Origin: a virus
Taxonomy: Duplodnaviria > Heunggongvirae > Uroviricota > Caudoviricetes
Virus record (IMG/VR): IMGVR_UViG_2718218168_000001
Location: 32,001-96,000 of that record
Reading direction: 5' to 3' (one strand)
DNA: 64,000 nucleotides
In this document: positions 3,417-38,830 of the stretch, one piece after another
How the letters are laid out: each line of letters begins with the position of its first letter
Position numbering within the stretch: the first letter of the stretch is position 1
Position numbers and translations under genes: made by a program
The notes under the pieces: model-generated
What the model saw: the letters and a program-made list of their open reading frames with translations, nothing else
The model's database searches: none
Told to the model about the DNA's origin: nothing

Positions 3417-3451
3417 TTATGCTTCCTTTCGTAAAAACTCTTTTTGACGCG

Positions 3452-34079: not shown

Positions 34080-34150
34080 TTATCCACAGCATAGATCCAA
34101 TAAACAGATCCCAAAGAGAACCTAGGAAGATCCAAAGAAGATCCCGGATC
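34080..34150. other. Plasmid origin elements: DnaA box plus five GATC sites
   Basis: TTATCCACA at 34080-34088; GATC at 34094, 34107, 34129, 34140, 34147; immediately upstream of the iteron array. Confidence 0.7.
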
Positions 34151-34191
34151 GCTGTAAGCCGCGCCGTTCATGGCCTGAAACGGGATCAACA

Positions 34192-34290
34192 TTGACTATA
34201 CGCGATTTTATGTTGACTGTGTGCGATTTTATGTTGACTGCACGCGATTTATTGTTGACTATACGCGACAGAAACGTTGACTGTACGCGA
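34192..34290 (+). repeat. Origin iterons: five direct repeats at about 21-bp spacing
   Basis: TTGACT(A/G)T(A/G)(C/T)GCGA at 34192, 34213, 34234, 34255, 34277. Confidence 0.8.
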
Positions 34291-34371
34291 TTTTAGAGCC
34301 TGAATATTCACAGCTGTTGATAACAGTCATCTAAATTAACGCCAGGCCGCGCCACACATGGAGAAACCACG

Positions 34372-35256
34372 ATGCCGGAAGAAAGTAAAGGCTTCCTTAG
34401 CGTTGAAGAAGTTGCAGGAAATACAGGAGAAATCCACAGCCTGAAGCCCAATAACAACAGCACTATACAACCTATCGCTTTGTTGCGCTTAGGTGTGTTT
34501 GTGCCAACCTTAAAATCTACCAATGTGGCACTACGTCGCGGATCGTCAGTTACTACAAACACAACGAACGCAACCGAAGAACTATCAAGCCTTAAAATTG
34601 TTGAGCAGGAAGGCTATGAGGGAATTGAAATTCATGGCCCACGCCTGGATATGGATACTGATTTTAAGGTGTGGGTGGGCATAACCTCCGCGTTGTTTGA
34701 CTACGCACCTGATGATGACGGCATAATCACCCTGCCATTCTCCGAGTTTGCCGATCGATGCGGCTATCCACGTAAGCGCCTTTCAAAGGCGTTCCGTAAA
34801 AGTATTGATGACTCTCTGACACGCATTCAGCAGACAGTTGTCAAATTCCGCTTCCCGGCGGCAAAAGGTCATCTCAATAACATTAACGTCAACTTGTTGG
34901 CATATAGCAGCCTGAATACCGAGCTTGATGTTATCGAGATCCAGCCGCAGAAACAGCTATCTGAACTTTACTATGTTGACTATAAGCGAATCCTGAAGCT
35001 GAAGATGCTGGATAAGCTCGGGCGCAAAGAGACGGCCAAGGTACTGTATACATTCTTTGAGGCTCTACCCGCCAACCCGGCACCTGTCAGCATTGAGCGC
35101 CTTAGAGCAAGGCTTAATCTCAAATCATCCGTTAGCGTGCAAAATAGCGTTATCAGAAAAGCCATGAAAGATTTGGAAGCTATTGAATATCTTAAATTTT
35201 CAGAAATAAAAAACGGCAGGAAAATCGGCTTCCAGATCCATAAGCGCAATCCATAA
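34372..35256 (+). CDS. repA: Iteron-binding replication initiator RepA; start uncertain
   Basis: 294-aa ORF flanked by iteron arrays in P1-type origin/control layout. Confidence 0.75.
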   Translation: MPEESKGFLSVEEVAGNTGEIHSLKPNNNSTIQPIALLRLGVFVPTLKSTNVALRRGSSVTTNTTNATEELSSLKIVEQEGYEGIEIHGPRLDMDTDFKVWVGITSALFDYAPDDDGIITLPFSEFADRCGYPRKRLSKAFRKSIDDSLTRIQQTVVKFRFPAAKGHLNNINVNLLAYSSLNTELDVIEIQPQKQLSELYYVDYKRILKLKMLDKLGRKETAKVLYTFFEALPANPAPVSIERLRARLNLKSSVSVQNSVIRKAMKDLEAIEYLKFSEIKNGRKIGFQIHKRNP

Positions 35257-35258
35257 TA

Positions 35259-35514
35259 TTGACTATATGCGATAGCGAGAAGTTGACTATAGGCGACATT
35301 CGTTGACGCTGGTGGATTTTTGCTGGCGTCAATATTCTGCAAGTCGCTATTGAGATGGCTTTTAGGGTCATTTCATCGCGTATAGTCAACGTTTCTCCCG
35401 ACAATATCTTACATAGTCGATCTTTGGTGGAGTTAAATCGACTACAGTCAACTTTTGACTGTAGTCACATCGCGCATAGTCAACTATTCACATTAACTTT
35501 CGCGCATAGTCAAC
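35259..35514. repeat. Downstream iteron array (incA-like copy-control locus), mixed orientation
   Basis: Forward iterons at 35259, 35283, degenerate 35303; reverse iterons (cgcgtatagtcaac type) at 35376, 35438, 35470, 35500. Confidence 0.7.
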
Positions 35515-35548
35515 ATTTGCGCGGTTCTCATCAAGCAGTGGTATTGAT

Positions 35549-36358
35549 ATGCAAGAAGAGAAACAACACTACCTCTACGTTCTGGTGCCGGAGAATGGAG
35601 ATACTTTTAAAATCGGCATTTCATGTGGTCCATTGGCACGGTTTAAAGGGCTACAAGTGAGTCCCGATTTTGCGCTTTCACGGGTCTATCGTGGTACGCG
35701 TTTGGCAATAGTTAATCTTGAGCGGGCTTTACACGCAACCTTTTTCCCCTGGAATGCGCCGTGGGAGAAAAGCGCTGGTGGCGGGCATACTGAATGGTTT
35801 ACACGAGAGTGTCTTGATAAGGTTTTGGCTCATATCGAATATCTAAATGATATGTGGGGAGGGATTCTCGAGCGCATTAAGTCGAATGATTTACTTCAGC
35901 GTCCAGTAGATGCTGCCCGCTCTTTCGAAAAAGAGCTGGATGTTACTTCTATCGTGACTTTCAAAGATGACGCAGGAATGAGGGACGTGGCTTATGTCTC
36001 CATATCTGGCTATGAACCGGACGCGATCCGCGCTCAATGTGAATTGCTGAAAGCAATGTTTATGCTTCGGACTAAATATTCCTGGGAGACAAGGCGGGTG
36101 TGCTTCCCTATGGAAGAGTTAACCGCCACCATTGATTCCCAGCTTTACCACGATAATCCAGAGAAGTTTTTTAGCCTTTTAGCCGGTAATGGGCTTAACT
36201 GTGTGTCCGGGCTGGGGCGAAGTAGAATCCAACATGCCTCGCTCTTCGGTCCCTTCTTTTACGATCGACACGGGTACTTTGAGGCTGAACTTCCGGCGCT
36301 TACGCGTGCTATAGATACTATCGATTTCGAACGATTATTCGCTGCTCTTAGCAAATAA
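35549..36358 (+). CDS. T5orf172-domain (GIY-YIG-superfamily-like) protein inserted between iterons and parA
   Basis: 269 aa; N-terminal YLYVLVPENGDTFKIGIS...LHATFFPW...GGGHTEWF; own terminator downstream. Confidence 0.5.
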   Translation: MQEEKQHYLYVLVPENGDTFKIGISCGPLARFKGLQVSPDFALSRVYRGTRLAIVNLERALHATFFPWNAPWEKSAGGGHTEWFTRECLDKVLAHIEYLNDMWGGILERIKSNDLLQRPVDAARSFEKELDVTSIVTFKDDAGMRDVAYVSISGYEPDAIRAQCELLKAMFMLRTKYSWETRRVCFPMEELTATIDSQLYHDNPEKFFSLLAGNGLNCVSGLGRSRIQHASLFGPFFYDRHGYFEAELPALTRAIDTIDFERLFAALSK

Positions 36359-36365
36359 CACTGAT

Positions 36366-36387
36366 GCCCCTGAACGGGGCTTTTTTG
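36366..36387 (+). terminator. Intrinsic terminator
   Basis: gcccc-tgaac-ggggc hairpin followed by TTTTTT. Confidence 0.7.
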
Positions 36388-36526
36388 TGCCCTCCTTGTA
36401 ACTCTCAATCGTGCAAAATGAACCAAACATGCAGAGAATGCTATGTACAAGCATCTGTGCATACATTATTATTTTATGCAGCATTTTTAATTAAATTCAA
36501 AAATACAGCATAAAGGATGGCTTTCG

Positions 36527-37723
36527 ATGAGTGATTCCAGCCAGCTTCACAAGGTTGCTCAAAGAGCAAACAGAATGCTCAATGTTCTGACTGAACAAGT
36601 ACAGTTGCAAAAGGATGAGCTACACGCGAACGAGTTTTACCAGGTCTATGCGAAAGCGGCACTGGCAAAATTGCCTCTACTGACTCGAGCGAACGTTGAC
36701 TATGCCGTGAGTGAAATGGAAGAAAAGGGTTATGTTTTCGATAAACGCCCTGCTGGCTCTTCAATGAAATATGCGATGTCAATTCAGAACATCATTGACA
36801 TATATGAACATCGCGGAGTGCCAAAATACCGGGATCGCTACAGCGAAGCGTATGTGATTTTCATCTCCAATCTTAAAGGCGGTGTGTCAAAAACTGTATC
36901 GACGGTTTCTCTGGCGCATGCAATGCGTGCTCACCCTCATCTTCTGATGGAAGATTTAAGGATTCTGGTTATTGACCTTGATCCGCAATCTTCAGCAACG
37001 ATGTTTTTAAGCCATAAACACTCTATTGGTATCGTAAACGCAACATCTGCACAGGCTATGTTGCAGAATGTAAGCCGTGAAGAGCTGTTAGAGGAGTTTA
37101 TTGTTCCTTCTGTTGTACTTGGGGTTGACGTTATGCCTGCGTCGATTGACGATGCCTTTATTGCATCCGATTGGAGAGAGCTGTGCAATGAGCATCTACC
37201 GGGTCAGAACATCCATGCTGTCCTGAAAGAAAATGTGATTGATAAGCTGAAGAGCGATTATGACTTTATCCTCGTTGATAGTGGTCCTCACCTTGACGCC
37301 TTCCTGAAAAATGCTTTGGCCTCGGCCAATATACTGTTTACACCTCTGCCGCCTGCAACGGTTGATTTCCACTCATCGCTTAAATACGTTGCCCGCCTTC
37401 CTGAGTTGGTGAAACTCATTTCGGATGAAGGCTGCGAGTGCCAGCTTGCGACTAACATTGGTTTTATGTCCAAGTTGAGTAACAAGGCAGACCATAAGTA
37501 TTGCCATAGCCTGGCTAAAGAAGTGTTCGGTGGGGATATGCTTGATGTCGTCCTCCCTCGCCTTGACGGTTTTGAACGCTGCGGCGAGTCTTTTGACACT
37601 GTTATTTCAGCTAACCCGGCAACGTATGTTGGTAGTGCTGATGCATTGAAGAACGCGCGAATTGCCGCGGAAGATTTTGCTAAAGCAGTTTTTGACCGTA
37701 TTGAATTTATCAGATCTAACTGA
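36527..37723 (+). CDS. parA: Partition ATPase ParA (type Ia, with N-terminal HTH domain)
   Basis: 398 aa; deviant Walker A KGGVSKT; upstream palindromic operator region. Confidence 0.9.
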   Translation: MSDSSQLHKVAQRANRMLNVLTEQVQLQKDELHANEFYQVYAKAALAKLPLLTRANVDYAVSEMEEKGYVFDKRPAGSSMKYAMSIQNIIDIYEHRGVPKYRDRYSEAYVIFISNLKGGVSKTVSTVSLAHAMRAHPHLLMEDLRILVIDLDPQSSATMFLSHKHSIGIVNATSAQAMLQNVSREELLEEFIVPSVVLGVDVMPASIDDAFIASDWRELCNEHLPGQNIHAVLKENVIDKLKSDYDFILVDSGPHLDAFLKNALASANILFTPLPPATVDFHSSLKYVARLPELVKLISDEGCECQLATNIGFMSKLSNKADHKYCHSLAKEVFGGDMLDVVLPRLDGFERCGESFDTVISANPATYVGSADALKNARIAAEDFAKAVFDRIEFIRSN

Positions 37724-37739
37724 GGAGTAAGAAACCCCC

Positions 37740-38741
37740 ATGTCAAAGAAAAACAGACCAACAATTGGGCGAACCCTTAATCCTTCAATATTAAGCGGAT
37801 TTGATAGTTCTTCAGCCTCTGGCGATCGAGTCGAGCAGGTATTCAAGTTATCAACTGGTCGCCAGGCCACATTTATTGAAGAGGTAATACCTCCGAACCA
37901 GGTAGAAAGCGATACCTTTGTTGATCAGCATAACAACGGGCGTGACCAGGCATCTCTTACGCCAAAATCATTAAAAAGTATCCGAAGCACTATTAAGCAT
38001 CAGCAATTTTACCCTGCAATAGGTGTTAGACGGGCTACAGGGAAAATTGAAATTTTGGATGGTTCCCGGCGTCGAGCTTCTGCCATCTTAGAGAACGTAG
38101 GGTTGCGGGTTTTAGTCACGGACCAGGAGATCAGCGTTCAGGAAGCGCAAAATTTAGCGAAAGACGTTCAGACAGCATTGCAGCACAGCATTCGAGAAAT
38201 AGGTCTGCGTTTGATGCGAATGAAAAATGATGGGATGAGTCAGAAGGATATTGCAGCCAAAGAAGGGCTGTCTCAGGCGAAGGTCACGCGTGCTCTCCAG
38301 GCAGCGAGTGCTCCGGAAGAATTAGTCGCCCTTTTCCCTGTGCAGTCGGAATTAACCTTTTCGGACTACAAAACGCTTTGTGCTGTTGGCGACGAAATGG
38401 GGAACAAGAATTTAGAGTTTGATCAGCTTATTCAAAACATATCCCCGGAAATAAACGACATCTTATCCATTGAAGAAATGGCCGAAGATGAAGTTAAAAA
38501 TAAAATCCTGCGCTTGATAACAAAGGAAGCCTCACTACTCACGGATAAAGGTTCTAAAGATAAGTCCGTAGTTACTGAATTATGGAAATTTGAGGACAAG
38601 GATCGCTTTGCAAGGAAGCGCGTGAAAGGCCGTGCATTTTCTTATGAGTTTAATCGACTTTCAAAAGAGCTACAGGAAGAACTCGACAGGATGATTGGGC
38701 ATATCCTTAGAAAGAGCCTCGATAAAAAGCCGAAGCCTTAA
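37740..38741 (+). CDS. parB: Partition protein ParB
   Basis: 333 aa; ParB/Spo0J-like region (ILDGSRRRASAI); followed by parS. Confidence 0.9.
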   Translation: MSKKNRPTIGRTLNPSILSGFDSSSASGDRVEQVFKLSTGRQATFIEEVIPPNQVESDTFVDQHNNGRDQASLTPKSLKSIRSTIKHQQFYPAIGVRRATGKIEILDGSRRRASAILENVGLRVLVTDQEISVQEAQNLAKDVQTALQHSIREIGLRLMRMKNDGMSQKDIAAKEGLSQAKVTRALQAASAPEELVALFPVQSELTFSDYKTLCAVGDEMGNKNLEFDQLIQNISPEINDILSIEEMAEDEVKNKILRLITKEASLLTDKGSKDKSVVTELWKFEDKDRFARKRVKGRAFSYEFNRLSKELQEELDRMIGHILRKSLDKKPKP

Positions 38742-38744
38742 ACT

Positions 38745-38830
38745 TTCGCCATTCAAATTTCACTATTAACCTACTGTTTTTAAAGTAAATCCATCTAAAA
38801 TTTCAAGGTGAAATCGCCACGATTTCACCT
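38745..38830. other. parS centromere (box A heptamers ATTTCAC and box B hexamers TCGCCA)
   Basis: TCGCCA (38745), ATTTCAC (38756), GTGAAAT-TCGCCA-cg-ATTTCAC (38807-38827) with an AT-rich spacer. Confidence 0.8.

Follow-up and report, generated by a model that had tools for sequence, protein, structure and literature searches.

A probable p0111-type replicon of a P1-like phage-plasmid, organized like P1 oriR-repA-incA

The plasmid replicons of phages P1 and P7 are annotated (NC_005856 and AF503408, respectively) in the same order: an oriR with a DnaA site, five Dam sites and five incC iterons, the promoter PrepA inside these iterons, the initiator gene repA, and nine incA iterons, of which three are direct and the following six inverted at a spacing of about 31 bp. 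In P1-like phage-plasmids, the replicon belongs either to incompatibility group Y (IncY) or to the p0111 type (PMC9603915), a dichotomy also found in PMC11165635 and PMC10879196, and the RepA of phage SJ46 has already been published as 42% identical to that of P1 (PMC5241659). The present analysis concerns positions 34080-35515 of a 64,000-nucleotide stretch of Caudoviricetes DNA (positions 32,001 to 96,000 of IMG/VR record IMGVR_UViG_2718218168_000001), referred to below as the window. This segment very probably corresponds to the p0111-type (RCS47/SJ46) replicon of a P1-like phage-plasmid in its plasmid-prophage state, related to the P1 oriR-repA-incA module (IncY) as a divergent sister. The p0111 replicon is an already catalogued and very common type; it is not a new replicon. 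As the p0111/IncY dichotomy is established, and routine in plasmid typing and in the surveillance of resistance-carrying phage-plasmids, the assignment itself has little weight as a discovery. What is added here is descriptive, namely the iteron map of the p0111 replicon, the boundaries of a mosaic of about 2.35 kb, the retained P1 partition determinant, and a co-residence count; these data are relevant to the widespread view that elements of the IncY and p0111 types are compatible with one another.

Organization of the replicon and comparison with P1 and p0111 elements

The features of the segment are given below. For the bit scores, the five origin iterons were turned into a weight matrix, which was run over the whole 64 kb; sites of at least 18 bits are considered strong.

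34080-34088, + strand: left DnaA box TTATCCACA, a perfect consensus match at the outer (left) end of the origin, aligning with the P1 DnaA boxes
34093-34152: five GATC (Dam) sites, starting at 34094, 34107, 34129, 34140 and 34147, within 57 bp
34153-34189: GC-rich spacer with a GCCGCGCC block common to P1 and to an 85% variant (L005); a sixth GATC, at 34184, lies just ahead of iteron 1
34190-34293, + strand: five origin iterons (incC-like), starting at 34190, 34211, 34232, 34253 and 34275, of 22.8-27.6 bits each
34315-34323, - strand: second DnaA-like box TTATCAACA, with one mismatch, between the iterons and repA
34372-35256, + strand: repA, an open reading frame of 294 amino acids with a GGAGAA Shine-Dalgarno sequence upstream
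34974-34992, + strand: intragenic iteron TGTTGACTATAAGCGAATC inside repA, at the codons for YVDYKRI, 18.1 bits
35257-35319, + strand: downstream direct iterons, strong at 35257-35275 (21.2 bits) and 35281-35299 (18.4 bits), weak at 35301-35319 (9.6 bits)
35373-35391, 35435-35453, 35467-35485 and 35497-35515, - strand: strong downstream inverted iterons, 18.6-20.7 bits
35404-35422, - strand: weak downstream inverted iteron, 8.0 bits

The following components of the P1 architecture are present: a putative Rep3-family initiator, flanking DnaA boxes, a cluster of five GATC sites, five phased iterons and an incA-like locus, lying in the same genomic slot as in P1, between upfA and parA. The original prediction had described a layout made of a DnaA box, five GATC sites, five 21-bp-phased iterons, repA and about seven further iterons in both orientations, and each of these elements was found at or near the place where it had been put. 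Both orientations of the downstream iterons were also correct; their number had to be revised to six strong and two weak copies, and the intragenic copy had been overlooked.

The origin iterons are 19-mers of the form (T/C)(G/A)TTGACTRYRYGCGA(TTT/CAG), which make up repeat family D1/D2 and follow one another at 21, 21, 21 and 22 bp from start to start. This series is identical in P1 (iterons 14-10). Twelve sites reach 18 bits in the 64 kb scanned, all of them inside 34190-35515, and the best site elsewhere scores 12.2 bits. Allowing up to two mismatches, the core TTGACTRTRCGCGA is matched 13 times, compared with 1.47 matches expected, and none of 100 shuffled sequences reached this number. Downstream of repA, the inverted copies, including the weak one, are spaced by 31, 31, 32 and 30 bp. 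The direct group at 35257-35319 corresponds to P1 incA copies 9-7, and the six inverted copies of P1 share the spacing of about 31 bp, although P1 has nine downstream iterons (three direct and six inverted), where the window has six strong and two weak ones (two, or three with the weak copy, direct, and four, or five with the weak copy, inverted). Unlike P1, the window carries an iteron inside repA, and its control iterons are separated from parA by an additional gene.

The GATC cluster consists of four AGATCC(A/C) heptamers and one GGATCGC. Nowhere else in the 64 kb do five GATC fall within 70 bp, a density for which a Poisson model predicts about 0.009 intervals, and by analogy with P1 it is presumed to be the opening and methylation-control region. 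A DnaA site is annotated at the position of the left box in the P1 (NC_005856) and P7 (AF503408) records; P1 has two left DnaA boxes in tandem, whereas the window has one. DnaA-like boxes likewise occur in P1 on the repA side of the origin iterons, and variant L005 carries a perfect TTATCCACA at the place equivalent to the box at 34315-34323.

For comparison with P1, NC_005856 was taken as the canonical sequence and AF503408 as P7. OP279344, the comparator used first, has an oriR 98% identical to that of canonical P1, which leaves the comparison of the iterons unaffected. In the left half of the origin, made up of the DnaA box, the GATC heptamers and the GCCGCGCC block, identity to P1 is 71-73%, and the GATC segment is 73% identical to the five-Dam-site segment of P1, while the iteron array drops to 37%, which is the background level. 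The curated iteron of P1 and P7 is GATGTGTGCTGGAGGGAAA, as given in the original prediction, and its sequence is unrelated to that of the window iteron. Neither matrix recognizes the sites of the other replicon: the window matrix finds no site in P1 oriR-incA, and the P1 matrix reaches at best 10.7 bits on the window replicon, where genuine P1 iterons mostly score 18-28 bits and the two weakest incA copies 11.4-14.8 bits. The window RepA is 42% identical to P1 and P7 RepA (E-value 9e-71). Near-identity of the iterons and RepA to those of P1 had been named as the finding that would overturn the prediction; the alignment gave unrelated iterons and a distant RepA, and the proposed combination of a P1 organization with another Rep-iteron specificity is supported by the unrelated iterons, the RepA divergence and the matching layout. 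Judged from these alignments, the Rep-iteron specificity of the window replicon would, therefore, differ from that of P1. No recognizable counterpart of the PrepA hexamers annotated in P1 was seen in the window. Homology between the two iteron types was also considered: the best register set by hand gives 8 matches out of 16, but is offset from the MAFFT register, and no claim is made.

The link to p0111 elements is much closer. Over its 1.5 kb, the module matches E. coli plasmid pRHB25-C13_2 (CP057476.1) at 100% nucleotide identity, and phages RCS47, phi456, SJ46, JL22 and others at 97.5-99.3%, with a RepA identity of 100% to RCS47 and phi456 and of 99.7% to SJ46 and JL22. The replicon of JL22, a phage with which MG1655 was lysogenized, has been typed as p0111 (PMC9603915). 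Nothing material sets the p0111 elements RCS47, SJ46, JL22 and phi456 apart from the window, and they likewise carry the T5orf172 gene and a P1-type par locus downstream. A plasmid search retrieved 555 records with the p0111 replicon; in 376 of them, roughly 90-100 kb circular plasmids, the match extends over at least 80% of the query. The replicon was also found in 414 of 5,426 complete E. coli genomes. This prevalence on circular plasmids and in genomes, together with the lysogeny of JL22, implies that the replicon is functional. In the searchable literature, no paper mentions p0111 and iterons together, the type being defined there by its rep gene only; the iteron map of the p0111 replicon may, thus, be missing from the open literature, which is a descriptive gap and not a discovery.

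Mosaic boundaries, partition and incompatibility

Compared with canonical P1, the differing cassette spans about 2.35 kb (34080-36428) and contains, besides repA, the origin iterons, the downstream control copies and a single additional gene. On its left side, near-complete identity to P1 runs through the end of upfA and a terminator-like hairpin, up to about 34070; past this boundary, the DnaA/GATC segment is only about 72% identical, and no identity is left at the iterons. On its right side, identity is back at about 36424-36428, some 100 bp ahead of parA, and amounts to 97-99% at the nucleotide level from there on (NC_005856). The cassette is followed by the partition locus:

36428-38828, + strand: P1 partition module, with Ppar/operator, parA (36527-37723), parB (37740-38741) and parS (about 38746-38828)

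ParA is identical to P1 ParA at 396 of 398 positions and ParB is 100% identical to that of P1 (K02380/NC_005856). The parS region is 97% identical to that of P1, with intact A and B boxes. Values of 58% for ParA and 43% for ParB against OP279344 had suggested that the whole rep-par module was foreign; this was dropped when tblastn showed that the par locus of OP279344 is of the P7 type and that of the window canonical P1. The par proteins of RCS47 are said to be identical to those of P7 in PMC5241659, which cites the RCS47 paper. This is contradicted by the RCS47 ParB sequence, which is identical to the ParB of the window and of canonical P1 and 43% identical to that of P7. With a P1-type ParB in RCS47 and a P7-type par in OP279344, a record named 'phage P1 del res del mod', the rep and par modules assort independently among P1-like elements.

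These boundaries matter for incompatibility. Cross-inhibition between p0111 and IncY elements through incA/incC would not be expected, since RepA and the iterons differ from those of P1. Partition incompatibility (incB) with canonical P1 should, by contrast, persist, because parA, parB and parS are canonical P1, and parS is annotated as the incB determinant in P1 (NC_005856). The different incompatibility behavior put forward in the original prediction can, therefore, apply at most to the replication determinants; it does not extend to partition, whose determinant is canonical P1 (ParB 100%, ParA 99%, parS 97%).

Co-residence was counted in the 5,426 complete E. coli genomes, using a concatenated query to obtain the union of both types. 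Of these, 414 carry the p0111 replicon and 361 the IncY replicon, with a union of 774, so that both occur together in 1-2 genomes, compared with 27.5 expected under independence (Poisson P of about 4e-10); this depletion is observational, and is confounded by population structure, immunity and the shared par locus. Double carriage of a single type is equally rare: IncY gives 362 records in 361 genomes (one genome with two), and p0111 gives 414 records in 414 genomes (none). Chromosomal matches number eight for p0111 and eleven for IncY.

The strongest form of the predicted difference would be that the replicon swap confers full compatibility with P1, allowing the two elements to share a cell freely, as is also suggested in PMC11165635. 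The unrelated iterons, the RepA divergence and the treatment of IncY and p0111 as separate types in the literature speak for it. It is, nevertheless, unlikely, in view of the canonical P1 parS, ParB and ParA, parS being incB, and of the co-residence count, where the mixed combination is no more frequent than double carriage of one type. The depletion itself argues against a replicon swap that lets IncY and p0111 elements coexist freely. A more restrained statement, which is possible while falling somewhat short of probable, is that the change from IncY to p0111 alters Rep-iteron specificity without necessarily making P1-like elements compatible in practice. If so, exclusion would depend on determinants of partition, of immunity, or of both, and some other reason would account for the persistence of the replicon polymorphism.

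The RepA initiator, its iterons and a proposed mechanism

The window RepA matches the Rep3_C domain of Pfam at 27.3 bits (cut-off 21.1) and the family phrog_775 with an E-value of 2.6e-134; a sequence search of the PDB with RepA gave only chance-level matches. An AlphaFold model computed from a 25-sequence alignment has a mean predicted local distance difference test (pLDDT) score of 76 and a predicted template modeling (pTM) score of 0.71. Its best fold matches are RepE of mini-F, domains 2-3 of RctB, pi of R6K, the WH1 domain of pPS10 RepA, and TrfA. The Foldseek probability is 1.00 for RepE, pi and pPS10 WH1, with global TM scores of only 0.2-0.3, due to a different orientation of the domains. 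Based on the Pfam and PHROG matches and on these structural matches, RepA, a homologue of P1 RepA, is predicted to be a tandem winged-helix, iteron-binding initiator of the Rep3 family. Mini-F RepE (ori2-incC), R6K pi and pPS10 RepA resemble it in fold, with a sequence identity of only 11-15%. Initiators of this class are controlled by iteron binding and handcuffing.

RepA relatives were counted among 5,000 matches of a plasmid search: 391 are at least 99% identical, only 6 fall in the 80-99% range, and the other 4,603 are below 60%, this last group including RepFIB-like initiators at 44-49%. The p0111 RepA cluster is, thus, tight and isolated, and few intermediates were found in a search of 5.8 billion proteins. 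One of them is encoded by variant L005, a 91-kb E. coli contig, with a RepA 85% identical at the amino acid level and a repA 75% identical at the nucleotide level. It has five iterons at 21/21/21/22 bp with the core TTGACTRTRYGCGA, two direct and four inverted downstream copies, and conserved GATC heptamers; the layout of its inverted copies is that of the window. The weak direct copy at 35301-35319, CGTTGACGCTGGTGGATTT, is kept in L005 as CATTGACGCTGGCGGATTT.

A Proteus relative (L007), the nearest sequenced one outside the p0111 cluster, has a RepA 53% identical to that of the window and 21-bp-phased iterons TGTTGAYGCTAGNCGATTT that are half-conserved: the outer TGTTGA and CGATTT are common to both, and the center is different. 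The iteron core is, thus, the same at 85% RepA identity, half-conserved at 53%, and unrelated at 42% (P1). In these sequence comparisons, iteron divergence tracks initiator divergence, as would be expected of a cognate pair. The downstream array of L007 is far larger than that of P1 or p0111: at 3831-4500 of L007, beyond its repA, a 43-bp unit with an iteron-like GTTGAAGCAAGACGATTT is repeated in tandem about 11 times.

The intragenic iteron has a counterpart in L005 (3603-3621) at the same offset, nucleotide 602, within a 17-nucleotide identity run, which is one of three runs of at least 17 nucleotides across repA between L005 and the window. L007 also has an intragenic iteron (3424-3442), while none was found when P1 repA was scanned with the iteron matrix. 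This conserved site could be an additional, undescribed control site of the p0111 lineage. Two further observations concern the downstream locus. A 7-bp inverted repeat, TTGACGC (35303) and GCGTCAA (35326), lies at the weak direct copy, within 35301-35332, and the 5' half of this copy resembles the Proteus-type iteron TGTTGACGCTAG. Moreover, the palindrome GACTACAGTCAA-CTT-TTGACTGTAGTC at 35439-35466 is made of two head-to-head partial iterons and overlaps the inverted iteron at 35435-35453; it could be a candidate binding site for dimeric RepA.

The P1 oriR paradigm provides the basis for a mechanism, which is proposed for the window replicon by analogy and comprises opening by RepA and DnaA, Dam/SeqA control, and handcuffing. 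RepA monomers would bind the five origin iterons and, together with DnaA at the flanking box or boxes, would open the region of the GATC heptamers, where DnaB would be loaded. Dam methylation would be needed for initiation, and sequestration of the hemimethylated origin by SeqA would time it. The downstream iterons may act like incA, titrating RepA and pairing with the origin through RepA ('handcuffing'), which would keep the copy number near one or two. Finally, repA may be autorepressed, because its promoter would lie in or beside the iteron array; this is the weakest step of the proposed mechanism.

Points against the p0111 reading and competing explanations

Several points weigh against the p0111 reading of the segment and the mechanism attached to it. 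The type was assigned through JL22, SJ46 and RCS47, and not through the PlasmidFinder reference AP010962. No experiment on the p0111 replicon was found in the literature, be it on binding, origin mapping, Dam or DnaA dependence, or incompatibility. Regarding the initiator, the Rep3_N score of 22.0 bits lies 0.4 bits under the cut-off of 22.4, and NCBIfam lacks a model for both the window RepA and P1 RepA. A sigma-70 consensus scan revealed no + strand promoter for repA, and the two candidates identified manually are weak: one combines TTGACT of iteron 3 (34234-34239) with GACTAT (34257-34262) after 17 nucleotides and overlaps iterons 3-4, and the other combines TTCACA (34307-34312) with TAAATT (34332-34337) after 19 nucleotides. 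Lastly, the near-absence of IncY and p0111 co-residence shows neither compatibility nor replicon incompatibility.

Two explanations compete with the p0111 assignment at a comparably low level, and the first, that an IncFIB (RepFIB) replicon was captured from an F-type or Klebsiella plasmid, is very improbable. RepFIB replicons have a rep gene flanked by iterons. The RepFIB/IncFIB family (F, pO157, IncFIB(K)) and SSU5-type RepA belong to the same initiator superfamily as the window RepA, at 44-49% identity; RepFIB-type initiators are next-nearest to it, and some records are annotated 'RepFIB replication protein A'. At this distance, however, RepFIB is no closer than SSU5 RepA (46%) or P1 RepA, and both RepFIB and SSU5-type initiators are too distant for the same replicon type; the RepA cluster is, moreover, tight and isolated, and homology to the P1 origin extends over the DnaA/GATC half.

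According to the second, which has an equally slim chance, the module is a non-functional remnant, and another replicon maintains the element. No direct functional test of the module was found in the literature. Against this, the reading frame is intact, all 12 iterons are 98-100% conserved across hundreds of independent plasmids, the replicon occurs in 414 genomes, and its architecture is kept in the variant that is 75% identical at the nucleotide level. Furthermore, P1 oriR-repA-incA has been precisely replaced and not supplemented, and the other replicon of P1 (oriL/repL) is lytic.

A plain P1/P7 (IncY) replicon, with the P1 iteron simply given wrongly in the original prediction, has next to no probability left: the identical architecture, the upfA-parA position and the 71-73% identical left origin segment would fit it, but it is refuted by the curated P1/P7 iteron GATGTGTGCTGGAGGGAAA, the mutually blind matrices, the 42% identical RepA, and a megablast alignment of the window to true P1 that ends after 49 bases, so that neither the P1-type iteron nor the near-identical RepA that characterize the IncY class is found.

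The p0111 assignment is, thus, retained, and two minor observations can be added to it. Database labels for the p0111-type initiator are inconsistent: the 100%-identical plasmid CP057476.1 is typed 'IncHI1B' in PLSDB/MOB-suite, and GenBank/RefSeq names for the initiator include 'RepFIB replication protein A', 'RepB family plasmid replication initiator' and 'replication helicase', none of which conveys the relationship to p0111 or to the P1 family. The other observation concerns the extra gene of the cassette:

35549-36358, + strand: T5orf172/GIY-YIG-like gene, 269 amino acids, Pfam T5orf172 and phrog_2876 (unknown function)

This gene is not a known replicon part, gave no match with PADLOC, and is absent from P1 between incA and parA. 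It travels with the p0111 cassette, and in a 90% variant (L009), the same slot is occupied by a 257-amino-acid gene.

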